Of a DNA stretch of 62,008 nucleotides, positions 16,761-44,691 are shown piece after piece. Each line of letters begins with the position of its first letter. The stretch's first letter is position 1. Made by a program: the position numbers and the translations under genes. The notes under the pieces were generated by a model that did no database searches, was not told the origin of the DNA, and worked only from the letters and a program-made list of their open reading frames with translations. Source of the DNA: a virus (Duplodnaviria > Caudoviricetes); the IMG/VR virus record IMGVR_UViG_3300043419_000785, positions 1 to 62,008 of that record. One strand, 5' to 3'.

Positions 16761-17500
16761 TTTTGTGCCTGTTGAATCGGTGGTACAGCAAATGGTGCAC
16801 CGGATGTTTTCATATGTGCATCCATCTGCATCCATAACTTCATGCGTTGTCCGTCGTACCAGTCCCGCCAAAACATACGTTGTGCGAGGCTTGGGTCATC
16901 CACGTTTTTCATGATGAGTTTTATTGCAACGTAGGTAGCTAGAAGCTGTTTTAAAACATCATCTGGAAGAAAATCCAACGTTGTAGCCGCGTCATTAGCC
17001 GGCATAGGATGTACGCCACATCCGTAAATTGTAGTGTTTATTGGTGAACCACTAGCATTGCCTGGATAAACAGCAATACGATAAGCGTCTGGTCTATACC
17101 AATACAATACACCTGTGCTTCCTGCGGCTGTTGTTGTTTTGTAACTAAGGTCATTCGCACGAATTGATTGCTCACTAGCATGCGTTAGTCTGACTGACCC
17201 GCTGGTAATGAACACATCCGTGACTGACCAGATAGTGCCACTATTCGACACGCTAGTAGCTGACACTAACGATGACGACAGGCTGTTGTTTGCTATTGCT
17301 AATGTAGCATTTACAGGTATGTAAACACATGTCTTACAAAGGTCTGTGATGGCTTCTGCAATAAACGTTGTGACACCATCGGTTGAAATAATTGTGTCAG
17401 TGCCACCAGACCCGTCAGGCAATTGACCCAATACACTTGCATTGGTTTCGTTCAGTAACCTGTATGCTTCTTGCCGCACACTCTGTATTGATATTCCCAT
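16757..17500 (-). CDS. Head-tail adaptor / tail tubular-A-like protein 2
   Basis: N-terminal helix, IAVYP motif, C-terminal LPD..helix; resembles the adjacent gene. Confidence 0.55.
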   Translation of the reverse strand: MGISIQSVRQEAYRLLNETNASVLGQLPDGSGGTDTIISTDGVTTFIAEAITDLCKTCVYIPVNATLAIANNSLSSSLVSATSVSNSGTIWSVTDVFITSGSVRLTHASEQSIRANDLSYKTTTAAGSTGVLYWYRPDAYRIAVYPGNASGSPINTTIYGCGVHPMPANDAATTLDFLPDDVLKQLLATYVAIKLIMKNVDDPSLAQRMFWRDWYDGQRMKLWMQMDAHMKTSGAPFAVPPIQQAQK

Positions 17501-29636: not shown

Positions 29637-29655
29637 TTTGACCTCGTAAGTAGGT

Positions 29656-29664
29656 ATGCTATAA
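29656..29664 (+). promoter_or_regulatory. Extended -10 element TGCTATAAT
   Basis: Matches TGnTATAAT; upstream of the LuxR-type gene in a divergent intergenic region. Confidence 0.5.
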
Positions 29665-29708
29665 TCTCCGATTAAACACATCTGGATTGTACATTACAGG
29701 AGCATTAT

Positions 29709-30008
29709 ATGGAAGAATCCCGTGAAGGCATGTACTTTGACGGCTTCACATGGCGTTCACATGATGAAACCCCTGCTGAGCGTGAGACACGTACGGACGT
29801 AGTCTACGACTTATCAGATCGAGAACGTGAAGTTCTAGGCATGATGCCTAGCAAGATGACTGCTAAGCAAATGGCTGCTTCCTTGGGGATTAGCCATAGG
29901 ACTGTTCAGTTCCACATGGACTCACTGTATTGGAAACTTGGATGCAGTGGTCGTGACGCTCGAACGCAAGCGTGTAACAAGGGGCGTAAATTAGGATATA
30001 TTAAATAG
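29709..30008 (+). CDS. LuxR/GerE-type HTH regulator
   Basis: LSDREREVL...AKQMA..LGIS.RTV.FH...LY.KLG. Confidence 0.85.
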   Translation: MEESREGMYFDGFTWRSHDETPAERETRTDVVYDLSDREREVLGMMPSKMTAKQMAASLGISHRTVQFHMDSLYWKLGCSGRDARTQACNKGRKLGYIK

Positions 30009-31362: not shown

Positions 31363-31666
31363 GCTTCATCCTCCTCCAATGTTTTGCTGTTTCATTCGAC
31401 GTAGCGTTTGGGCACTCGCCTGTATACGCAAGTACTAACTCTGTTACGAACGCAGTAAACTTCTTGTCTCGTGTAACGCAATACGTTAGATACCAGATTG
31501 CTTTACACAGGTCTTTCGCATATGTTGTGCCGGCTTTCTTCCCACGACGTTGCAAGTACTTGAGTGCACTAAATTCATATCGTGTAAGTTCCCAGTCATC
31601 CGAAACTGCGACTGCATCTAATGTGTTTTGTCCATAGTGTTCACTTAGCCCATGAACGACTGGCAT
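31340..31666 (-). CDS. DUF3310-like protein
   Basis: HY...ALKYL.R.GKK...DL.KA.WYL. Confidence 0.7.
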   Translation of the reverse strand: MPVVHGLSEHYGQNTLDAVAVSDDWELTRYEFSALKYLQRRGKKAGTTYAKDLCKAIWYLTYCVTRDKKFTAFVTELVLAYTGECPNATSNETAKHWRRMKHGPTNCS

Positions 31667-35679: not shown

Positions 35680-35789
35680 ACAAATCTCCGCTAGTACTAT
35701 ACAATATATTAATGACAGCACGCTAAAATGTTTTGTTGGATAAGCGAATCTACGTCGGTAGAGGGTAGTCGAAGAAAATATGTTCCGTA

Positions 35790-35888
35790 GGGGGCGGGGA
35801 GGATTATAGGAAAAAGGAGGGGCGGGGGCTTGCCATGTGGGGGTGGTTGACCCCGGGTGGGGGAGGGGGTAGGGGGCAGGGGAGGGGG
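35790..35888 (+). other. G-tract cluster (G-quadruplex-capable) at the strand switch
   Basis: About eleven runs of 3-5 G within ~100 bp. Confidence 0.7.
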
Positions 35889-35909
35889 TAATGCCGTAGC
35901 GTCATTCGT

Positions 35910-36017
35910 CCACGCTAGTACAGCGGAGATAGAGGGGCAGGGCCAACTACTTAACCCTCGCAGGTATGGGTGTGCTCTAGTTGGCTACACTGCGTCAAGT
36001 GTATATATATGATGTAA
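35910..36017 (+). repeat. Cassette element copy 1
   Basis: CCACGCTAGTA-N24-AACTAC-N8-CGCAGGTATGG-N9-AGTTGG-N15-TGTATATA-N4-ATGTAA. Confidence 0.92.
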
Positions 36018-36034
36018 CTAGGAGGTTACGAGTC

Positions 36035-36310
36035 ATGTTGCATGAGATATTCAGGGTCAAGGTCGCCAATCAGTTTGGCGACGTCGTCGTAGAAAAGCGT
36101 GTTGACTGGGTCGCGATGACAGACACCACTGACATGACATTCACAACCCGTGAGGTCACGGAGACACTTTGGTTGATTATGCCAAAGATGTGCAAGTGTG
36201 AATGGGACTTAGTCAAGGTAGGCGGGAACCGTCGTTTTCGCAAACTTTGGTTCGAGTCAATTGACGGGCGATATGTTCTATACATATCTGCCAGAAAGGA
36301 GCGGAAGTAA
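36035..36310 (+). CDS. Cassette 1 hypothetical protein (91 aa)
   Basis: AGGAGGT Shine-Dalgarno then ATG at 36035. Confidence 0.7.
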   Translation: MLHEIFRVKVANQFGDVVVEKRVDWVAMTDTTDMTFTTREVTETLWLIMPKMCKCEWDLVKVGGNRRFRKLWFESIDGRYVLYISARKERK

Positions 36311-36399
36311 TGCGAGAGATTCGCTTTACGGTTGCACAGGTTATCGCCTGTGTAATCTTCTGCGGCGCTGTTGGCGCCCTCATCGTCTTAAACTTCTAG
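36310..36399 (+). CDS. Cassette 1 small membrane peptide (29 aa)
   Basis: TAATG coupling; MREIRFTVAQVIACVIFCGAVGALIVLNF. Confidence 0.55.
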   Translation: MREIRFTVAQVIACVIFCGAVGALIVLNF

Positions 36400-36411
36400 G
36401 GAAACCTAGAA

Positions 36412-36439
36412 AGGAGGGCTTCGGCCCTCCTCTTTTTTT
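36412..36439 (+). terminator. Intrinsic terminator
   Basis: AGGAGGGC-TTCG-GCCCTCCT followed by a T-run. Confidence 0.9.
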
Positions 36440-36465
36440 GACCAAAAAAGCGGAGCATAACATAA

Positions 36466-36573
36466 CCACGCTAGTAATGCAGACTTGTCGACAGCGGACG
36501 AACTACATAAACCTCGCACGTATAGGTTGGCTTTAGTTGGCTGGACTGCGTCAAGTGTACTTATAAAGTGTAT
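36466..36573 (+). repeat. Cassette element copy 2
   Basis: Same boxes and spacing. Confidence 0.92.
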
Positions 36574-36613
36574 GGCGATATTGCCTACAACGTAATCGAA
36601 CGGAGGTAATACC

Positions 36614-36814
36614 TTGACGTATTCCTACCGTATGAATGGTGCCTTGCGAGTGGAATTCACTTACAAGGGATACGACTGCGAGATAGAACTATCTCATGGT
36701 GGTATCACAACCCTTCATATCGACAGCCTTGGCTGTTTTGAGTTTGATAGTGATGTATGCACATTACATCATCTAACAAACTTTGCGGATGCCGTCATCC
36801 GCCAATCATCGTAG
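36614..36814 (+). CDS. Cassette 2 hypothetical protein (66 aa)
   Basis: GGAGGT + TTG start. Confidence 0.65.
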   Translation: MTYSYRMNGALRVEFTYKGYDCEIELSHGGITTLHIDSLGCFEFDSDVCTLHHLTNFADAVIRQSS

Positions 36815-36859
36815 TGTTTGTGATTGCCCCTCGGGAAACTGAGGGGCGGAGGTTTCACC

Positions 36860-37042
36860 TTGAACAAAGGTTTATTGATGGGGCTTTTCGTCGTTGCAGT
36901 GATTCATACGGCTTTGTCGTTGCTGCTTGCTTTGGGTTTGCGGTCGTACTTTTGGTACGCTTCATTCCTAGCGACTGTGATTGTCGCTAACATCATCGGA
37001 CATCACCCTGCGGTTTACGCAGAGCTGACAAAGAAGGGTTGA
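36860..37042 (+). CDS. Cassette 2 membrane protein (60 aa)
   Basis: GGAGGT + TTG start; two hydrophobic segments. Confidence 0.6.
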   Translation: MNKGLLMGLFVVAVIHTALSLLLALGLRSYFWYASFLATVIVANIIGHHPAVYAELTKKG

Positions 37043-37047
37043 CCTTT

Positions 37048-37072
37048 GGAGGGCTTCGGCCCTCCTTTTTTT
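37048..37072 (+). terminator. Intrinsic terminator
   Basis: GGAGGGC-TTCG-GCCCTCC + T7. Confidence 0.9.
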
Positions 37073-37097
37073 CGACTTATGCGGGAGCATATGCACA

Positions 37098-37205
37098 CCA
37101 CGCTAGTAATGCAGAGTTAGTCAAGGAAGACGAACTACATACACCTCGTAGGTATGGATGTGCTTCGGTTGGCAGAATACCACGGTTTGTACTTACATAA
37201 TGTAA
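37098..37205 (+). repeat. Cassette element copy 3
   Basis: Same boxes and spacing. Confidence 0.92.
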
Positions 37206-37223
37206 CCAAGGAGGTTATATACA

Positions 37224-37469
37224 ATGCGGTACTTTGAATTGTGTCGGGTTCGTGATGTGTCGCCGATGTCAACTGATGTCGAATATTCGGCACCATGTGT
37301 CATGTGTGGTGACAAGGTCAAGGTGGTCGTGTCTGAACAAGACCACGTGTCAATGCGGTGGGAAAACAGTATCCCGCAGCATCTCGAGATTTCATCTCGG
37401 GAATTCTTCATGTCGGGTATGTGCTCGGGATGTCAGGAGGATGTTTTCAGCGATGAAGACGAGGATTAG
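37224..37469 (+). CDS. Cassette 3 zinc-ribbon-like protein (81 aa)
   Basis: AAGGAGG Shine-Dalgarno; CVMC...CSGC; acidic tail. Confidence 0.75.
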   Translation: MRYFELCRVRDVSPMSTDVEYSAPCVMCGDKVKVVVSEQDHVSMRWENSIPQHLEISSREFFMSGMCSGCQEDVFSDEDED

Positions 37470-37569
37470 ACTTTGGGATGCCATGATGGTCGCCATCATG
37501 GTTTTCGTCGGGCTGGCGTGGATGTGGATGGTCGCCAATGGCGTCTATCTCGTCGACTTTGAATTCTGA
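37453..37569 (+). CDS. Cassette 3 small membrane peptide (38 aa)
   Basis: AGGAGG upstream; one hydrophobic helix; ends just before the terminator. Confidence 0.5.
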   Translation: MKTRIRLWDAMMVAIMVFVGLAWMWMVANGVYLVDFEF

Positions 37570-37573
37570 ACTC

Positions 37574-37598
37574 AGGAGGCTTCGGCCTCCTTTTTTTT
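37574..37598 (+). terminator. Intrinsic terminator
   Basis: AGGAGGC-TTCG-GCCTCC + T8. Confidence 0.9.
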
Positions 37599-37625
37599 GT
37601 GTGCCAAATCGGGAGCACACCACCA

Positions 37626-37733
37626 CCACGCTAGTAATGCCAATGTGACCAACCAGGACGAACTACATAAGCCTAGCAGGTATGGGTTGGTTATAGTTGG
37701 TGGTGCACGTGGAAGTGTACTTATTAGATGTAA
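37626..37733 (+). repeat. Cassette element copy 4
   Basis: Same boxes and spacing. Confidence 0.92.
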
Positions 37734-37765
37734 GTGACGTACTTACAATGAAAGGTTTACTAATC

Positions 37766-37999
37766 ATGATTAGTATGACATTCGAGAAGTTTTGGGCGTA
37801 CGTGTCCCGATACATCTCAAACCGTATCGGCGTTGGATTGGACGACTTGGCTGATGTAGATATCTGGGATTATTACTCAGAGCATCCTGAGACCAAGGAG
37901 CATTGGCAAGGGGCTATTCGTGATGCAGCGGAGCACGCTATGTCTGAGCAGGACTGCGTAGACCCTGAAATCATGGCATTGTTCTCTACTCAGGACTAA
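37766..37999 (+). CDS. Cassette 4 acidic protein (77 aa)
   Basis: AAAGGT Shine-Dalgarno; D/E-rich. Confidence 0.7.
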   Translation: MISMTFEKFWAYVSRYISNRIGVGLDDLADVDIWDYYSEHPETKEHWQGAIRDAAEHAMSEQDCVDPEIMALFSTQD

Positions 38000-38053
38000 G
38001 ATATGCGGCCCGGGCTGACGTTCTCATGTGATACTCCGTCAGCCTTATACCGC

Positions 38054-38085
38054 AGAACCGGGGCTTCGGCTCCGGTTCTTTTTTT
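38054..38085 (+). terminator. Intrinsic terminator
   Basis: AGAACCGGGGC-TTCG-GCTCCGGTTC + T7. Confidence 0.9.
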
Positions 38086-38110
38086 GGCTGGTTGCCAAAC
38101 CACACACACA

Positions 38111-38218
38111 CCACGCTAGTATTGCCAATATCATCAAGCCAAACGAACTACATAGACCACGCAGGTATGGGTTGGTTATAGTTGGTGGTACGGCGACAAG
38201 TGTACTTATTATATGTAA
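38111..38218 (+). repeat. Cassette element copy 5
   Basis: Same boxes and spacing. Confidence 0.92.
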
Positions 38219-38237
38219 GCGTTGGAGGCTTACTATC

Positions 38238-38675
38238 ATGTATCAAGTCAAACAACGTTCACCGTTCGGTGAAACGTACGTGCACGGGCAATTTATGTCG
38301 TTTAGCAATGCAATGCATTGCTGCCTTGCAGTCAATGATACCCGTAGCAGGGCATTCAAGGCGTATCCTGCCTACATTTTTGAATCGGTAACACAACGTG
38401 TTATCAAGCCATCACGACGCCCTGCATATTATTATGCAATCTTTGTGAATGAAGGGCATTATGCATACGGCGGTGCTGAAATATTCACAAGTGTAAAGGC
38501 TATCAAGGCCGAGTTATTTGAGCGATTGAATAATCAGCGGCGATACCCTTGCGTGGATAAGCGGGCAAGTTTTGAGGTCTACTACCTCAATCCTGATGAC
38601 CTTGATTACACTTGCCCTGATTTTCGTGTGCACTTCGGTAAACGCGGCGGCGTCAAAATAACAAAATATGTTTGA
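38238..38675 (+). CDS. Cassette 5 hypothetical protein (145 aa)
   Basis: GGAGG Shine-Dalgarno; ends at the terminator; GKRGGV C-terminus. Confidence 0.7.
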   Translation: MYQVKQRSPFGETYVHGQFMSFSNAMHCCLAVNDTRSRAFKAYPAYIFESVTQRVIKPSRRPAYYYAIFVNEGHYAYGGAEIFTSVKAIKAELFERLNNQRRYPCVDKRASFEVYYLNPDDLDYTCPDFRVHFGKRGGVKITKYV

Positions 38676-38678
38676 CGC

Positions 38679-38705
38679 AGGGAGGCTTCGGCCTCCCTTT
38701 TTTTT
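38679..38705 (+). terminator. Intrinsic terminator
   Basis: AGGGAGGC-TTCG-GCCTCCC + T8. Confidence 0.9.
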
Positions 38706-38730
38706 GTCAGCCTGGCTGACCACACACACA

Positions 38731-38838
38731 CCACGCTAGTACTGCATATATAGACAACACGGACGAACTACACAATCCTCGCAGGTATGGGTCTGCTTTA
38801 GTTAGTGGTACGTGTGCGATTGTACTAAATAGATGTAA
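38731..38838 (+). repeat. Cassette element copy 6
   Basis: Same boxes and spacing. Confidence 0.92.
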
Positions 38839-38853
38839 CAGGAGGTTACTAAC

Positions 38854-39087
38854 ATGGATTGGATTACAGGAGAGCTGTTCGCATGGTACGGCGACAGCAT
38901 GGTTTTGCAGGTAGAAGAATCACGGGAACCCGTAACGGCTGATTGGTGCCGTGATTTCGTATATGAAGACTTCGATTCCTGCGAATTGAAGGAAGGCACG
39001 GCACTACATAGCATCTTTAATCATTTGCTTTGGTACGCCGAGTGGGACAAATTGGCAGAACGTGTAAACGCAGTATTGGAGGATTAG
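38854..39087 (+). CDS. Cassette 6 acidic protein (77 aa)
   Basis: AGGAGG Shine-Dalgarno. Confidence 0.7.
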   Translation: MDWITGELFAWYGDSMVLQVEESREPVTADWCRDFVYEDFDSCELKEGTALHSIFNHLLWYAEWDKLAERVNAVLED

Positions 39088-39405
39088 ATGGAAATTAGAC
39101 CAAGAGGTTTGGTGCGCCTTGATTGCATCGTTGTTACGGCAGTTAGTTTCATCGATTGGTTGGATTTATTGGTAGAGCTGAAAGAGATTACACCTCGCCA
39201 AGCAAAACTAATCGGCAAGCCAATTCGCCGCGAGATGCGAAAAACCGAGGGTAATTTCAAGTTATACGACATACGTGTATTGCTTGATGCAGGTTACGAG
39301 GGCGAGTGGTCGCCGGCGATTCATAATAACTGGCATCACTTAATCCAGTTATGCGCCAAAGACCTCAAGACATCGGAGGCGAATGACTTCTATGTGAGAG
39401 CATAG
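39088..39405 (+). CDS. Cassette 6 second protein (105 aa)
   Basis: Abuts the previous stop; ends at the terminator. Confidence 0.7.
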   Translation: MEIRPRGLVRLDCIVVTAVSFIDWLDLLVELKEITPRQAKLIGKPIRREMRKTEGNFKLYDIRVLLDAGYEGEWSPAIHNNWHHLIQLCAKDLKTSEANDFYVRA

Positions 39406-39408
39406 ACC

Positions 39409-39435
39409 GGAGGGCGAAAGCCCTCCATTTTTTTT
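39409..39435 (+). terminator. Intrinsic terminator
   Basis: GGAGGGC-GAAA-GCCCTCC + AT8. Confidence 0.9.
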
Positions 39436-39461
39436 GTTCGGCGCGGCGGAGCACACAAGCA

Positions 39462-39569
39462 CCACGCTAGTAATGCCAACATAGTCAAAACAGACAAACT
39501 ACATCATCCTCGCAGGTATGGATTGGCTACGGTTGGCGATACCTCCGCATTTGTACCTTTATGATGTAA
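39462..39569 (+). repeat. Cassette element copy 7
   Basis: Same boxes and spacing. Confidence 0.92.
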
Positions 39570-39608
39570 GCATGGTGCTTACACTGTTATCGTTTGAAGG
39601 ATACTAGC

Positions 39609-40412
39609 ATGTTTACAAAGCATGGCATGTCTCGACATAACACGTTCCTGCTATGGGCAGGACCCTCTGCAATCGATGGTGCACCTATCGGTTTGTTTGT
39701 GTCAGGATTGGCGAATCGTTCGCGCAATCGTAAAACAGGTGCAATGATTCAAACGTACATCATGCGTTTGGATGTCGACCCTGTATTTGCAATCGCAAAT
39801 GGGTTGGATGGTAGCATCTGCGGCATCGGAAAGAATCGATGCCCACACATGATGCAGGAACGCCGCAACGGTAATCGTGTCAAAATGATGCGTACCTGCT
39901 ACGTCAATGTTGGGCAGGGTCCATTGACAATATGGCGTGCATGGGAACGTGGAAACGTACCGATGCCAGACGTCCACACGGTACAGCGTGCAATCGCGGC
40001 GACGGGTCGCCCATTGCGAATGGGTGCATATGGCGACCCTGCGGCGATACCTCAACACGTGTGGGAGAGCATCCTACCGTTTGCGACGGGTCGCACGGGT
40101 TACACCCATCAATGGAACAACAAGATAGGATGGTGGCTTAAAGGTACCGTCATGGCGTCATGTGACAGCCCAGACGACCACCACCGTGCTGTCAATGTAG
40201 GGTGGGGAACGTTTACCGTTCTTCCGCATGACAACTACAAACAGTTGTTCAAATCATTGACACGTACCACGTCGTGCGTGTCCGACCCACAATTCAAGGG
40301 TCGGATGGAATTGATACCGTGTGAACGGTGCCTAAAGTGTGATGGCACACGTAACGTAGCGATACGTGCCCACGGCCCGTCAGAAAAGTGGGTAACCTTA
40401 CCCACCATCTGA
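39609..40412 (+). CDS. Cassette 7 conserved Cys-rich phage protein (gp88-like, possibly Fe-S) (267 aa)
   Basis: N.KTG.MIQT, SICG...CP...CYV, R.GAYGDP, GYTHQW, C..C.KCDG...I.AHG. Confidence 0.6.
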   Translation: MFTKHGMSRHNTFLLWAGPSAIDGAPIGLFVSGLANRSRNRKTGAMIQTYIMRLDVDPVFAIANGLDGSICGIGKNRCPHMMQERRNGNRVKMMRTCYVNVGQGPLTIWRAWERGNVPMPDVHTVQRAIAATGRPLRMGAYGDPAAIPQHVWESILPFATGRTGYTHQWNNKIGWWLKGTVMASCDSPDDHHRAVNVGWGTFTVLPHDNYKQLFKSLTRTTSCVSDPQFKGRMELIPCERCLKCDGTRNVAIRAHGPSEKWVTLPTI

Positions 40413-40415
40413 CAC

Positions 40416-40442
40416 AGGGAGGCGAAAGCCTCCCTCTTTTTT
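40416..40442 (+). terminator. Intrinsic terminator
   Basis: AGGGAGGC-GAAA-GCCTCCCT followed by a T-run. Confidence 0.9.
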
Positions 40443-40469
40443 GTGCCAGCTGCCAGGAGCACAAACACA

Positions 40470-40567
40470 CCACGCTAGTATTGAAAAATAGGGCAGGAGC
40501 CACAATCTACACAATCCTCGCAGGTATGGGTTGGCTACAGTTGACCCGCCCGACAGATGTGTACTTA
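40470..40567 (+). repeat. Cassette element copy 8
   Basis: Same spacing up to TGTACTTA at 40560; hairpin displaced downstream. Confidence 0.9.
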
Positions 40568-40630
40568 TATATTGTTCAAGGGTGTAGCGTACATTGACTA
40601 CATCACTTAGGACGTGTTGGAGAAACCACC

Positions 40631-41173
40631 ATGGACAATCAGTCCAAACGCATCGCAGACCTCGTCATCGAACTCATCGGAGCCATGAAGGTCGAACTGA
40701 CCCCGACTGGTTGCAAGGTTGAGGACATCCTCGGCTACATCGACGATGGCATCGCTCCTATCAAGCAGGAGTTTGTCGAGAACGTCTGCCGCATCGACAT
40801 CAACCACGACAACTACACTCTTGTGAACAACGAGCGTGTAGCCGACCTCACCGAGAAGGTAGACGAGGCAATCAACGACATCTCTTCGCTTGAGAGTCGT
40901 ATCGATGACCTCGAGTCCGACGACAAGGACATCGATGTCGAGGGTGAGATTGAGGCATTCCTTGACAACTACAAGGGGCAAAACCTCATCAGCTCTGCCG
41001 TGTCCGAAGCCATCGACAAGGACGAACTCATCGGCGACATCACCGATAGCGTCAAGGACGACATCGAATGGCTGCTCGATGACGACCAGTTCAGAACAAC
41101 GGTACGCCGTATTGTTCAGGAGGAGATCAAGAATGCATTGCAAGTCTTGGTCGCTCATTGGGAAGCCAATTGA
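40631..41173 (+). CDS. Cassette 8 highly acidic helical protein (180 aa)
   Basis: About 45 D/E vs about 17 K/R by hand count; visibly C-ending codons. Confidence 0.8.
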   Translation: MDNQSKRIADLVIELIGAMKVELTPTGCKVEDILGYIDDGIAPIKQEFVENVCRIDINHDNYTLVNNERVADLTEKVDEAINDISSLESRIDDLESDDKDIDVEGEIEAFLDNYKGQNLISSAVSEAIDKDELIGDITDSVKDDIEWLLDDDQFRTTVRRIVQEEIKNALQVLVAHWEAN

Positions 41174-41176
41174 GTT

Positions 41177-41208
41177 GGGTGGGGGGCTTCGGCTCCCTGC
41201 CTTTTTTT
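41177..41208 (+). terminator. Intrinsic terminator
   Basis: G-rich stem, TTCG loop, T7. Confidence 0.85.
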
Positions 41209-41234
41209 GTGTGCAGATTGGGAGCACAACACAC

Positions 41235-41332
41235 CCACGCTAGTATTGCCAACATAGACAGCCCCCACAATCTATATCGCCCACGCAGGTACCGTTCGCA
41301 TTCGGTCTGCCAGATTGTGGCACGTGTACAAT
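41235..41332 (+). repeat. Cassette element copy 9 (diverged)
   Basis: Box 1 at 41235, box 2 at 41281, TGTACAAT at 41325; spacing preserved. Confidence 0.85.
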
Positions 41333-41357
41333 TACTTTGCAGGTGGTGTGGTATGCA

Positions 41358-41418
41358 GATTCTGCACCCTCCCCTGTGACGTTACGACACGGAGGGGGTC
41401 GATTTCTGCACCCCTCCC
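41358..41418 (-). promoter_or_regulatory. Two inverted copies of the initiator iteron
   Basis: GATTCTGCACCCTCCCC and GTCGATTTCTGCACCCCTCCC nearly match the reverse complement of 48517-48537. Confidence 0.75.
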
Positions 41419-41624
41419 GTAGGCACGTAGGAGCCTCATACACGGACTCTACAAGAGTTCCAATATAGATGTATCAAAACAGGGGTTTCCTGTCTATTTC
41501 GTCCATATTTTCGCCTCTGGGCACAAGTTTGCTTGTCACAGATGTGGTGTATGTGAGCGATAGTGTCTTGTGTTGTGTTGTCTGGCTGTGTTCTTGTTTG
41601 ATTTGATTCTACGGAGGTTTGAGA

Positions 41625-42080
41625 ATGTCAGATTATTTGAATGGTGACCGTCCCGTCCTTATCGCAGAGGGACATCGTTTGGTTGAGGGTGTTCGTGTGA
41701 TGTTGTCACAAGGCGTCCCTGTGTGGCATGGTCAACTCTGGCTTGGCTTGTCCAAGTGGGGTATTGACGCACAGATGGTCGAGGACTTGTTCGAGCATCA
41801 TTACAACGAGGTGTCCGAGGAGGATGCAGAGGATGGTGCATTGACGAGCATGCCGCGGTGCATGCCGTTTGGTGAGTACCTTCGTATCCTTGCGGATGTG
41901 ATTGGTTTGGATGTTGTGATTGGTGATGTATGGGACTACGTGCATGGTCACGTTGACGCATGCGACGACCTTGGTGAGAATTACGACTACGCATTCACGT
42001 GGTTGCTCAACGAACTGGGTACGTTGCTTCCTGAGTTTGACGACCATCTGTTGTTGATGGAATTGGAGGTGGTTGCATGA
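41625..42080 (+). CDS. Hypothetical acidic protein (151 aa)
   Basis: GGAGGT Shine-Dalgarno. Confidence 0.7.
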   Translation: MSDYLNGDRPVLIAEGHRLVEGVRVMLSQGVPVWHGQLWLGLSKWGIDAQMVEDLFEHHYNEVSEEDAEDGALTSMPRCMPFGEYLRILADVIGLDVVIGDVWDYVHGHVDACDDLGENYDYAFTWLLNELGTLLPEFDDHLLLMELEVVA

Positions 42081-42430
42081 GTATGACAGTGTTGCCCGAC
42101 ATCAAGTCTCGCTTGGTGAAGGGTTCATCGCATATGGCTGGGTTGTTCAGTCGCTGTGCTTTCAGTAATCAGGGTTACTCATTCCAGTGTGACCGAAAGT
42201 GTCCGACGAAGTACAAGCGAGTCTTCGAGTTGACTGACGTACATGAGATGGAGTTGGTGATGACATTGCGTTACGCTATGCCCACTACCATGTTCCTTGT
42301 CACTAGCATCAACTGGGAGGACGACCCAGAGACGTGTTGGCGTGTTGAGTGGGAGAGTTATGGCATGCGGTACCGCATCCAGTTCTTCTACCCTAGATTT
42401 ATTAATATGGAGGTTGAGAGCGATGTCTAA
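42077..42430 (+). CDS. Hypothetical protein (117 aa)
   Basis: GGAGGT Shine-Dalgarno; ATGA overlap. Confidence 0.7.
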   Translation: MSMTVLPDIKSRLVKGSSHMAGLFSRCAFSNQGYSFQCDRKCPTKYKRVFELTDVHEMELVMTLRYAMPTTMFLVTSINWEDDPETCWRVEWESYGMRYRIQFFYPRFINMEVESDV

Positions 42431-42788
42431 GCATCCTTGTTGGAATATCGGTGCGTCCGAGCGTGCCTTGTTTGGTGCTGTTGATACTGCCATCGGTGAG
42501 CAGTTCATGTGTTGGCAATGTGCAGAGGGGGCTGGTCAGCCCCTGACGCATGAGTCATTTCATGTCATCACAGCACACGACATCGTTGATACTGGACTTT
42601 GGTTCAAGTGCGACAGATGCGGTGATGCGATTGATGAAGACATCCTGCTTGGTGTGGAGCCAGTCTACTCCTTGCCACAGAAGGACATGCCTGAGCAGGA
42701 CGTCGAGCGGTTCATGGAGGAGACTGCGGCAACGCAGTATGCCGACCATGTTGCAGAGTTGAAGGAAAGGGAGAGGTTGGACTTTTGA
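42423..42788 (+). CDS. Hypothetical protein with two CxxC motifs (121 aa)
   Basis: GGAGGT Shine-Dalgarno; CWQC, CDRC. Confidence 0.7.
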   Translation: MSKHPCWNIGASERALFGAVDTAIGEQFMCWQCAEGAGQPLTHESFHVITAHDIVDTGLWFKCDRCGDAIDEDILLGVEPVYSLPQKDMPEQDVERFMEETAATQYADHVAELKERERLDF

Positions 42789-43042
42789 AGAAGTTGAATT
42801 ATGTGGAATTGGATAACTGCCGTGAGCAGTATGCCGTCATCAACATCGTGACAGGAAAGGCTGATTCGTACGAACGGCACACGACTGCGGAGGCATCTGC
42901 ACGAAGAAGATCGCATTGCGGTCACACTCAGGTGGTCATTGACCTGCACACTGGTCGCATCACTGACGTGTTCGGAGCAGACTCACGCTTGACCGTGGGC
43001 ATCATGGGCGTACGCTTCGAGGAGTATCTTGACAATGAGTGA
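42785..43042 (+). CDS. Hypothetical protein (85 aa)
   Basis: TTGA overlap; GAGG Shine-Dalgarno. Confidence 0.6.
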   Translation: MKKLNYVELDNCREQYAVINIVTGKADSYERHTTAEASARRRSHCGHTQVVIDLHTGRITDVFGADSRLTVGIMGVRFEEYLDNE

Positions 43043-43247
43043 CAAACGCTATGACGGATGCATCACCGTCGACAAGACTGCGAAGACTGTTCAGATTTAC
43101 CGTTATGTGAGTTACAGCAACGGTCAGAACAATCTGCTCGACAACAGCACACACAAGTTCGACACCGTCGAAGACGCCATGCAGTTCGCAGAGCGAATGC
43201 ACGGGCACTACAAGAAAGACGGCGTGAGTCTGGTCGTAACCGACTAG
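43035..43247 (+). CDS. Hypothetical protein (70 aa)
   Basis: AGGAG Shine-Dalgarno. Confidence 0.65.
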   Translation: MSDKRYDGCITVDKTAKTVQIYRYVSYSNGQNNLLDNSTHKFDTVEDAMQFAERMHGHYKKDGVSLVVTD

Positions 43248-43295
43248 GCACGATGCCCTGCTGGTGGGGCGAAACACCAGCACAGGAGGTTTAGA

Positions 43296-43958
43296 ATGTT
43301 AGTTATCAGTTATGTGTATCGTGACCACGACGATAAGCTCGTCCTCGACAAGAAGCCCGTTTGTGCAATCGACAGCAAGACAATGCTTCATGACCTGCGT
43401 ACGGCATTGACCACGCTTGATTGGCACTCAATGTCTTGTGCCCTCACCACTGAGGACGCTGAACGCACCATCGAAGAGCATGTCAACCCATACACCCATG
43501 CGGCGTTCCTGCACAGTGCAAGCATCAATGGCTACCTGCAACAAGAGGCATATGCGTGGTTGCACTTGAATACAGCCTGGACTTTTGGCGACATCATCCC
43601 CGAGTTCGAGGCATGCGTCGAGCGTGAGGGATGCATCAGCACAGAATTGGTGATGGACACGATTCGCATGTGTATCGGTCTCCGTTGCAACAAGACGCTC
43701 GTGCAAGTGCAAGAGCAGTTCTACGAAGTCGATGACACCGAGTGGAGGCGTGACTACTTGATTGCCATCGAACGCATGGACGGACAACGCATCTCGTTCC
43801 GCTTCGAGTGTGGTGAATACGAGAATCGTGTGAAAGAAATCGAAGTACGTGCACGTGAGAGCGGAGACTGCAACCGTAGTGTTCACCGCTTCCCATTGCA
43901 GTCCCTGAGCGTACACCAACTGCGGGATCTTGGCGGGTTCGCATACAAACTCGACTAG
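43296..43958 (+). CDS. Hypothetical protein (220 aa)
   Basis: AGGAGGT Shine-Dalgarno; ends at the terminator. Confidence 0.75.
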   Translation: MLVISYVYRDHDDKLVLDKKPVCAIDSKTMLHDLRTALTTLDWHSMSCALTTEDAERTIEEHVNPYTHAAFLHSASINGYLQQEAYAWLHLNTAWTFGDIIPEFEACVEREGCISTELVMDTIRMCIGLRCNKTLVQVQEQFYEVDDTEWRRDYLIAIERMDGQRISFRFECGEYENRVKEIEVRARESGDCNRSVHRFPLQSLSVHQLRDLGGFAYKLD

Positions 43959-43960
43959 GC

Positions 43961-43987
43961 AGAGGGGCGAAAGCCCCTCTTTTTTTT
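43961..43987 (+). terminator. Intrinsic terminator
   Basis: AGAGGGGC-GAAA-GCCCCTCT followed by a T-run. Confidence 0.9.
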
Positions 43988-44002
43988 GGTTGTCAAAAGC
44001 AT

Positions 44003-44062
44003 CACACACACCCGCAGGTACAGCTCTGATTCTAGTTGCCGGCTGTTGCAGTTGTGTGGTTT
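44003..44062 (+). repeat. Cassette element copy 10 (internally deleted)
   Basis: CACACACA leader joined directly to CCCGCAGGTA, then TAGTTG. Confidence 0.65.
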
Positions 44063-44247
44063 AGTGCAAGATTGTGTTTTGGACACAACAAGTCATTTGA
44101 TTGAAGGAGTAAAGGATTGTTACATTTATTGCACCAGTTGATAGCCATCGCTATCATCTTGTTTTTCTTGTCGGGCGTTCTCGTTACCATCTACCATGTG
44201 GGACGGGGAGTGGTTGAATTCATTGTTGTTGCATCGAGGATATTGAA

Positions 44248-44691
44248 ATGACACGTAGTGATGCTGATGCAGTAGTGCATCTATTGATGAGCGAGTGGTC
44301 GAAGAACGCAGAGCCAGACCTGCAGCCTAAGTGGAATAAAGTCGCACCATTCATTTGGAAAAGCCCTAACGAGGTATACAAGTGCACGCTCAACTGGCTT
44401 GAATGGGACTTGTCGATTGTTACCTTTGATGTACCTAAGTCAATCAAGGGACTTGATGTCAATCGTGTACCTAACAGTCAGCACATCGTGCTGGTTGAAG
44501 ATTTGTTGACAGAGGACGGAAATCCTATCATCGTTCATGCTCAGGTCGCACAAACTAAGTACCCAGAGCAAAAACATGTACCTCTGTCCGCACCAGAAAT
44601 TTGCGATTCGTTCTTGGCTGGCGAGTGGACACCCTGGTGGACGTGCCGATGTTGCCATATGCGTAAACAACTACGCATCAAGCCGCAATGA
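44248..44691 (+). CDS. Hypothetical protein (147 aa)
   Basis: GAGG Shine-Dalgarno; coupled to the next gene. Confidence 0.6.
   Translation: MTRSDADAVVHLLMSEWSKNAEPDLQPKWNKVAPFIWKSPNEVYKCTLNWLEWDLSIVTFDVPKSIKGLDVNRVPNSQHIVLVEDLLTEDGNPIIVHAQVAQTKYPEQKHVPLSAPEICDSFLAGEWTPWWTCRCCHMRKQLRIKPQ

Follow-up and report, generated by a model that had tools for sequence, protein, structure and literature searches.

Putative transcription modules repeated ahead of small ORFan genes in the genome of an uncultured tailed phage

The phage genome IMGVR_UViG_3300043419_000785 (Duplodnaviria; Caudoviricetes) carries an array of small gene cassettes, each of which is headed by a copy of one long intergenic element. 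The record is a single contig of 62,008 bp with 47% G+C, is rated 100% complete and was analyzed in its entirety (referred to here as the window). A repeat search of the window found nine gap-free, in-register copies of the element on the plus strand, starting at 35910, 36466, 37098, 37626, 38111, 38731, 39462, 40470 and 41235, with 556, 632, 528, 485, 620, 731, 1008 and 765 bp between successive starts. These copies had already been described in a first reading made from the DNA letters alone (the sequence-only reading), whose consensus, with spacers of N24, N8, N9, N15 and N4 between the conserved stretches, fits the measured offsets exactly.

The first unit consists of copy 1 (35910-36029, with its boxes at 35910-36017 and a hairpin at 36014-36029), the genes c1a (36035-36310) and c1b (36310-36399, encoding a hydrophobic peptide of 29 amino acids), and a terminator at 36412-36431. 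Copy 2 (36466-36590), whose hairpin is bulged, is followed by c2a (36614-36814), c2b (36860-37042, encoding a hydrophobic product) and a terminator at 37048-37065. Behind copy 3 (37098-37218; hairpin 37202-37218) lie c3a (37224-37469), which encodes two CxxC pairs, c3b (37453-37569), which encodes a hydrophobic peptide of 38 amino acids, and a terminator at 37574-37591. Single genes follow copy 4 (37626-37746; hairpin 37730-37746; c4a 37766-37999; terminator 38054-38079) and copy 5 (38111-38233; c5a 38238-38675; terminator 38679-38698), the latter with a hairpin at 38215-38233 that holds GGAGG in its loop and 3' arm. Copy 6 (38731-38849), again with a hairpin, precedes c6a (38854-39087), c6b (39088-39405) and a terminator at 39409-39426, and copy 7 (39462-39582; hairpin 39566-39582) precedes c7a (39609-40412) and a terminator at 40416-40435. 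In copy 8 (40470-40605) the hairpin is displaced a few bases downstream; its cargo is c8a (40631-41173), encoding an acidic protein, with a terminator at 41177-41202. Copy 9 (41235-41342) has intact boxes and a diverged 3' half and is followed by a six-gene operon (41625-43958) and a terminator at 43961-43980. Behind this, also on the plus strand, a short-form element (43990-44062) comprises a CA leader, a single CGCAGGTA box, TAGTTG and then TGTG; it heads an operon of p1, p2, p3 and replication genes.

The twelve small proteins encoded in units 1-8 form no mutual blastp pair at E <= 0.01, which bears out the earlier claim that each of copies 1-8 precedes one or two unrelated small genes. Ten of the cargo proteins were tested against profile collections: none had a significant Pfam match, and one, c7a, had a strong PHROG match (phrog_2554, function unknown). 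This protein is also the best-conserved cargo, with 91-94% amino-acid identity in four relatives vs 36-88% for its neighbours; among the genes of the array, strong constraint probably acts on c7a alone. In units 1-3, a short hydrophobic peptide is encoded by the second gene. Hydrophobic peptides in the array region range from 29 to 60 amino acids and comprise, besides the products of c1b, c2b and c3b, that of 44117-44251, the first gene after the short element; in units 1-3, a soluble protein is thus repeatedly paired with a membrane peptide.

Within the element, box 1 (CCACGCTAGTA) is the least variable part. It is exact in all nine copies and has no exact occurrence elsewhere in the 62,008-bp genome; with at most one mismatch allowed, the genome holds 11 matches vs 0.8 expected, a number reached by none of 100 shuffles, and the two that lie outside the array are mismatched sites at 17248 and 24593. 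The boxes downstream are looser among the window copies: AACTAC is exact in seven of nine, box 2 (CGCAGGTATGG) is exact in five and has one mismatch in two and two mismatches in two, AGTTGG is exact in four, and TGTACTTA-N4-ATGTAA is exact in three and has one to three mismatches in five, with copy 9 unmatched. Boxes 1 and 2, which start 46 bp apart, are confirmed as related direct repeats; they are conserved as sequence, which is consistent with protein binding. In the relatives described below the two are interchangeable, and box 1 reads CCACGCAGGTA in three copies. Plus-strand matches to CGCWRGTA also occur at 31427, 33461, 33875, 35342 and 35689, within leftward-arm genes up to 4.5 kb left of the array; with an expectation of ~6 for the whole genome on both strands, these five may be extra binding sites or chance.

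The boxes are embedded in a larger unit. A GGAGCA motif and a CA-rich leader lie 5' of box 1 in seven of the nine copies, and directly before each of copies 2-9 we found a strong intrinsic terminator whose loop is TTCG or GAAA, as the sequence-only reading had stated. The ninth terminator (43961) closes the operon behind copy 9, and all nine plus-strand terminators are in register with the copies; from the end of the terminator T-run to box 1 there are 25-27 nt. Open reading frames (ORFs) led by a Shine-Dalgarno (SD) sequence begin 18-54 nt past the element. The whole unit thus runs from terminator to start codon and measures ~130 bp beyond the terminator, with the cargo being essentially ORFs alone. 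The length of ~108 bp given earlier holds for the span of the boxes, but the unit is longer, since it includes the GGAGCA/CA leader upstream and a conserved hairpin with the SD sequence downstream.

Pattern scans for the element recovered two viral contigs (G001 and G002) and a set of metagenomic contigs, together contributing 33 copies in seven relatives. The full set of 42 copies comprises nine in the window, nine in G001, four in G002 (before the contig end), eight in L023, three in L039, two each in L045 and L059, and five in L083; 41 of the 42 entered the conservation alignment. Matches in L020, L055 and L085 from the metagenome scan were chance matches and were left out of all counts, as were single matches with other spans, and a scan of a genome collection for the element gave single chance matches only. 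When p3 and c7a were used as anchor genes to look for more distant relatives, G001 was the sole match in the viral collection. The relatives share ~70-80% DNA identity with the window.

The 38 box columns of the alignment are ~96% identical both in orthologous (74) and in non-orthologous (746) pairs of copies, and the remaining columns reach 56% identity in orthologous and 47% in non-orthologous pairs. Invariant across the 41 copies are CCACGC..GTA, A..TA, C..G...GTA, GT, TGTA and TG, and box 1 is the most informative part of the unit. Indels occur in six of the 42 copies, each of 1-2 nt and all between box 1 and AACTAC (spacer 1), and the interval from box 2 to the core has no indel in any copy. 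The invariance of spacer lengths proposed earlier therefore holds in the window but not throughout the relatives, where these indels break it in spacer 1. Box columns at 96% identity, diverged spacers and indels confined to spacer 1 together indicate that purifying selection has acted on the boxes and on the distances between them, and that the copies do not stem from recent duplication. The lineage of L039, L059 and L083 does not keep the AACTA/TAGTT inverted pair. Both G001 and L023 also carry the short form at 43990-44062, which is a conserved one-box form and not a decayed copy.

Over the element, RNAalifold found no consensus pairs among the 41 copies, which means that conservation of the boxes is at the level of sequence, as in protein-binding sites. 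A structured cis-regulatory leader RNA over the boxes was rejected on this result and on the lack of any Rfam match in the genome, covariation being found in a short 5' hairpin only. In seven of the first eight window copies, this hairpin begins at the same base of ATG/TAA, a G at offset 104 from the copy start. In copies 1, 3, 5 and 6 the SD sequence (GGAGG) falls within the hairpin loop or 3' arm, with the start codon a few bases on. A stem of at least 5 bp can form from offset 104 in 29 of the 41 copies, which is the maximum of the positional profile. In two subsets of copies with hairpins of equal length, every cell of the alignment pairs (48/48 and 42/42), with double compensatory changes at two of six and three of six pairs; the covariation score was reached by 1 of 500 and 0 of 500 shuffles, respectively, and slid controls pair at 12-52%. 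The pairs include G-U, which the complementary strand could not form, and the structure therefore belongs to the sense RNA.

Because the hairpin has a fixed first base and contains the SD sequence, as a 5'-terminal stabilizer would, we infer that transcription starts at or beside the invariant G of TG/TA (offset 104). Offsets 95-100, just 5' of this base, are ~79-100% A+T, which fits a melting region. In bacteria, 5' stem-loops shield mRNAs from RNases (PMC7509114). The structure described here resembles the 5'-terminal stabilizers of bacterial and phage mRNAs in being a short hairpin at the extreme 5' end of the presumed transcript and in its compensatory changes; it differs from them in that the SD sequence lies in the loop or 3' arm and that the hairpin is part of a repeated DNA module. 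Any effect of it on stability or translation is putative.

The putative core promoter is non-canonical. In the hexamer placed on the invariant TA, position 2 is A in all 41 copies, but position 6 is T in only four of them; TTG stands at the -35-like site in 19 of 41. A sigma70 promoter class was rejected, as no register fits all copies, and sigma54-type spacing and other sigma classes were rejected by eye on the alignment. Only in the L083 lineage is the core a good sigma70 promoter, with 10 of 12 positions matched in three of five copies (TTGACG or TTGACC, 16 nt, TATAGT or TATATT). Sigma70 region 2 was not detected in six frames of the genome; a six-frame search for a T7-type polymerase (PF00940) gave no match either, and the same search matched no control genome. 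One additional intergenic site of the form TGTAY-N8-TGTR lies outside the array on the minus strand (29677-29693; TGTACAATCCAGATGTG). It resembles the array core (TGTAC-N5-AGATGT) and precedes a DUF6321 gene, whose likely start is ~45 nt away; it is devoid of upstream boxes and was not counted as a copy.

The best sigma70-type site of the genome lies elsewhere. At 29638-29665 on the plus strand, TTGACC, 16 nt and a TG-extended TATAAT match 11 of 12 positions plus the TG, a quality found in 0.03 sites per base-shuffled genome. This sole near-perfect sigma70-type promoter of the genome lies 44 nt before a gene (29709-30008, plus strand) that encodes a LuxR/GerE-type helix-turn-helix (HTH) protein of 99 amino acids (GerE, E = 3.6e-13) and is oriented opposite to its neighbours. 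The gene and the TG-extended -10 are conserved in G001 and G002, and the -35 is kept in G002, not in G001. We take the presence of this site as a sign that canonical promoters are read by the host, and that the array cores are probably weak alone. The spacer of the promoter contains GYAGGTATG, the box 2 core, at 29650-29658; this 9-mer occurs nine times in the genome vs 0.97 expected, seven times as box 2, once within a giant gene described below and once here. Because the only canonical promoter drives this gene and its spacer carries a box-like 9-mer, we propose the LuxR/GerE-type protein as the leading candidate for the box-binding factor. At a score threshold of 10, the genome holds seven sigma70-like sites vs a mean of 18.6 in 30 base-shuffled genomes, a deficit which may reflect selection against stray promoters or an effect of coding-sequence composition.

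Taken together, we consider it probable that every repeat forms a self-sufficient and insulated transcription module in the early region of a lytic phage. In the proposed mechanism, the intrinsic terminator would end transcription of the preceding unit. About 25 nt further on, the CA-rich leader would be followed by two direct CGCWRGTA-type boxes, centred ~99 and ~53 bp 5' of the presumed start, with AAYTAY between them, and these by a core promoter consisting of a TTGnnn-like element, 13 nt, the invariant TGTA and an AT-rich stretch. The first base of the transcript would be the invariant G of TG/TA or a neighbour of it, and the RNA would fold at once into a 5'-terminal hairpin of 5-7 bp. Either the loop or the 3' arm of this hairpin would present the SD sequence, with the start codon only a few bases further on, and the cargo would be one or two small ORFan genes. 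Given a non-canonical core and a host that evidently reads canonical promoters, the boxes are most likely regulator binding sites. A trans-acting regulator bound to them would switch all nine promoters together, with an activator being likelier than a repressor.

A more specific version of this mechanism is possible, though we hold it only tentatively. The 99-amino-acid GerE/LuxR protein, expressed from the sole canonical promoter, would bind the paired boxes ~99 and ~53 bp upstream, fire the nine weak promoters together and shut its own promoter through the box in the -35/-10 spacer, so that the array would represent an activator-gated form of the principle known from PeSL cassettes of T4-type phages, which are compared below. 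Small GerE/LuxR-family regulators such as GerE of B. subtilis both activate and repress promoters. The phage protein is like them in being essentially just a GerE-type HTH, with box-like sequences upstream of nine promoters and in its own promoter; it differs in that the box is unlike any recognition sequence checked, and its binding is putative. In the same version, the 130-bp module would be a portable linker: any ORF placed between two copies would be insulated, co-regulated, stabilized and translated, which would explain the base-exact spacing while cargo and spacers drift.

Several observations weigh against the promoter mechanism and its regulator. The profile of stem positions has a second peak at offset 90, in 25 of the 41 copies, which comes from self-complementary TGTA/AT-rich sequence. 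The two fully paired subsets (19 of the 36 c1-c8 copies) were selected because their hairpins are equally long, a choice that raises the share of paired cells but leaves the compensatory changes unaffected. In c8-type copies the hairpin lies a few bases downstream, and c9-type copies have none. As sigma70 promoters, the window cores are poor, with best regional matches of 4-9 of 12 and no shared register. The listed sequencing runs that hold the region comprise 24 of DNA and none of RNA, and both the start site and the promoter role are deduced from sequence. The case for the LuxR-type protein consists of a single post-hoc 9-mer match and the quality of its promoter, and TGNTATAAT was found once, which is not above chance (1.72 expected); an XRE-type HTH protein or a host factor could bind the boxes instead.

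If the host polymerase read the cores unaided as immediate-early promoters, the boxes might instead be operators at which a phage repressor shuts the early units off together. The L083 lineage lends itself to this reading, as activation may be unneeded at its sigma70-like cores, and so does the box-like 9-mer between the -35 and -10 of the LuxR-gene promoter, which is a repressing position; the phage moreover encodes both XRE-type and LuxR-type HTH proteins. However, sites centred at about -99 and -53 are beyond the footprint of the polymerase, where activators typically and simple repressors unusually bind, and the window cores are devoid of a usable -10 with a final T, a base found in just four of the 41 copies. 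We regard repression of host-read promoters as rather unlikely.

A further possibility is that the units are promoters for an injected virion protein, which would either carry out transcription of the array on its own, in the manner of N4 or crAss-like phages, or alter the host RNA polymerase to make it favour these non-canonical promoters. The candidate is a giant ORF on the minus strand (4250-1 joined to 62008-51553), which takes up ~24% of the genome, encodes 4,901 amino acids and stands at the end of the structural gene block. The invariant TGTA, the AT-rich stretch, the G at the presumed start and the lack of a sigma70 fit speak for this possibility. Only four homologues of the protein were found (3,962-4,852 amino acids), all in close relatives, and it contains an invariant HExxH motif near residue 1314. 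In the ESM atlas, its C-terminal 2,046 amino acids are similar to viral 'large polyvalent protein' clusters (scores of 0.91-0.92), some members of which have an ADP-ribosyltransferase domain, which is a lead only; the N-proximal 2,046 amino acids had no match in the atlas. Against a polymerase, the protein had no match in Pfam, PHROG or the PDB, where solved structures were checked by sequence and by profile, none of these or the atlas searches gave a polymerase signature, and simple metal-site motifs are absent. PF00940 is likewise absent in six frames, though that search also failed to match any control genome. In addition, a hairpin that holds the SD sequence and G-U pairs is sense RNA and not an N4-type DNA hairpin of the template strand. 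Transcription of the array through the giant protein is improbable in our judgment.

The module as proposed above probably has a secondary role, in which its copies serve as homologous linkers for gene conversion and, rarely, for the rearrangement or loss of cassettes. Recombination between copies, as suggested in the sequence-only reading, is apparent from mosaic copies and from homogenization of the core within genomes. In the c5 copy of G001, the -35/-10 segment matches the c2 copy of that genome at 97% identity vs 56-69% for its c5 orthologues, and the flanks are c5-like. The c1 copy of G002 has a c1-like 5' half (0.78-0.79) and a c6-like 3' half (0.89-0.92), and the c3 copies of G002 and L023 have a c2-type 3' half. 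Most copies of L023, L039, L045, L059 and L083 share TGTATATA as their core, most copies of the window, G001 and G002 have a TGTAC core, and the paralogues of L023 reach a core identity of 0.91-0.96.

Movement of whole cassettes is seldom seen. By tblastn, the cargo order c1-c8 and the operon that follows are collinear in six of seven related contigs, at 36-95% amino-acid identity. The exception, L083, has the order c3, c1, c2b, c4, c5 after a G-rich tract, with c2a and c1b absent; this permuted order comes from one contig of 2.4 kb whose assembly passed through repeats with identical stretches of 20-30 nt in common, and it could be mis-ordered. Small gains and losses occur at repeated terminators, and gene turnover is also found in the operon behind copy 9, where elements are absent. 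Frequent cassette shuffling is thus mostly refuted: when cargo variation was checked in the relatives, as had been recommended, six of seven proved collinear at ~70-80% DNA identity, and the check yielded one permuted contig and a few gains and losses. The absence of an integrase was predicted correctly, since the complete genome had no six-frame match to the tyrosine recombinase family PF00589, for which a control matched in 14 of 14 genomes, or to the serine recombinase/resolvase family PF00239. The Rad52-like protein that had been named as a possible agent was not recovered, as no Rad52 domain was found with Pfam; the recombination genes seen encode a VRR-NUC/resolvase-like and a Gam-like protein. 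Overall, the copies appear to recombine occasionally, with gene conversion common and cassette moves rare, a pattern that does not resemble integron-like traffic.

A primary role of the boxes at the DNA level, in recombination, DNA entry or replication, with integron-type cassette traffic and an incidental promoter, is very improbable: it could draw on the most conserved part, box 1, lying ~100 bp from the gene, on mosaic crossovers at or near boxes, on the one permuted contig and on c1b of G001, which is flanked by two identical terminators and missing in G002, but it is opposed by the lack of both recombinase families and of a conserved inverted-repeat fold, by the collinear relatives and the turnover in the element-free operon, by the absence of element-to-element joints in assembled contigs of four runs (which cannot reveal rare forms), and by a fixed position and orientation relative to terminator, SD sequence and start codon, which is a requirement of transcription signals. 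The array has in common with integrons that small, unrelated and mostly single-gene cassettes in tandem are parted by a repeated element. It differs from them in having no integrase, no folded site of the attC type (no consensus pairs in 41 copies) and a stable order in relatives, and in place of a common Pc promoter each cassette has its own terminator and promoter-like unit. Of the integron comparison drawn in the sequence-only reading, every defining feature fails except the array layout.

The remainder of the genome is that of a tailed phage with two divergent arms, which part at a G-rich tract with runs of 4-6 G (35770-35890, plus strand) directly before copy 1. A like tract also precedes the first element of L083; the tract may be a site of G-quadruplexes, a genome end or an origin. 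The leftward arm encodes an SNase-like nuclease, a methyltransferase, a dUTPase, a CHAP lysin, an XRE-type HTH protein, SSB, terminase, a P22-like portal, a capsid protein and structural proteins, and terminates in the giant ORF, which closes across the contig junction. The rightward arm begins with the array and continues with the VRR-NUC/resolvase-like gene, the Gam-like gene, a replication initiator and DnaB. The genome contains no tRNAs, and we found no close cultured relatives and no T4-like relatives among 50,697 phage records. Behind copy 9, a non-coding leader of ~280 nt (41343-41624) is shared with G001 and L023 and, in a less conserved form, with L059; it holds a strong CCCTCC/GGAGGG hairpin, has a ~31-nt duplication in G001 and no Rfam match, and may be a regulatory leader or a small RNA. 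In two freshwater runs (X4 and X5), assembled contigs cover cargo in 36000-40341 and stop at the elements; several of them differ from the window at many positions, which points to co-occurring strains and to assemblies breaking at repeats.

The host-takeover module of SPO1 has a layout in which many promoters and terminators serve clustered small early genes. The small early genes of Kayvirus likewise form clusters with many promoters and Rho-independent terminators, which occupy one end of the early region; their early promoters differ from the array cores in being strong and canonical (sigma-A/sigma70; TTGACW, 17 bp, TRTGN-TATANT) (PMC7698491). Modules of the SPO1-like/Kayvirus type are not known to have long conserved upstream boxes or to be one repeated homologous unit of 130 bp.

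The closest precedent, correctly named in the sequence-only reading, is the PeSL cassettes of T4-type phages, and the array resembles these promoter-terminator modules for early ORFans. PeSL (promoter-early stem-loop) cassettes lie upstream of ORFans and end in an SD sequence and ATG. Their copies recombine, which leads to insertions, deletions and replacements among related phages and yields chimeric copies as well as excised mini-circles with one chimeric element each; the authors drew the integron comparison themselves (PMC2839356; PMC4122927). As described there, a PeSL is a composite intergenic motif of ~100 bp with a stem-loop terminator and an early promoter, placed directly 5' of ORFans in a dense array, with the SD sequence and start codon at its 3' end and with chimeric copies. 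The phage array shares all of this, with a putative promoter, a unit of ~130 bp and terminators at eight of nine copies.

The differences from these descriptions are equally clear. PeSLs are found in hyperplastic regions of T4-type myoviruses, whereas the present array belongs to an unrelated, uncultured phage of 62 kb with a P22-like portal. The PeSL promoter matches sigma70 and has an AT-rich upstream region, whereas the core here is non-canonical and is preceded not by an AT tract but by two G+C-containing direct-repeat boxes that reach to about -104. Here the terminator always precedes the promoter by a constant interval, whereas the position of the PeSL stem-loop varies and defines five subclasses. 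The covarying 5' RNA hairpin is an addition of the present array. Finally, mini-circles and the activity of promoter and terminator were shown experimentally for PeSLs, whereas the phage array is known from sequence alone. The array thus seems to function in the PeSL manner, yet it falls outside that family. In a search of the published literature, three 11-mers of the element were unrelated strings among the matches listed (five of nine papers), and none appears in print as an element.

The array suggests that the plug-and-play architecture of early cassettes in T4-type phages also evolved in an unrelated lineage of uncultured freshwater phages. The control unit is richer here, with two far-upstream, base-exact boxes, a core that is probably unusable by the host polymerase alone and a 5' hairpin that carries the ribosome-binding site. 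The comparison of relatives moreover provides a rare measure of how frequently such arrays are rearranged. If the proposed circuit of one canonical promoter, one regulator and nine dependent promoters were true, it would offer a compact model for the timing of anti-host ORFans. The module itself would constitute a ready-made, insulated expression part.

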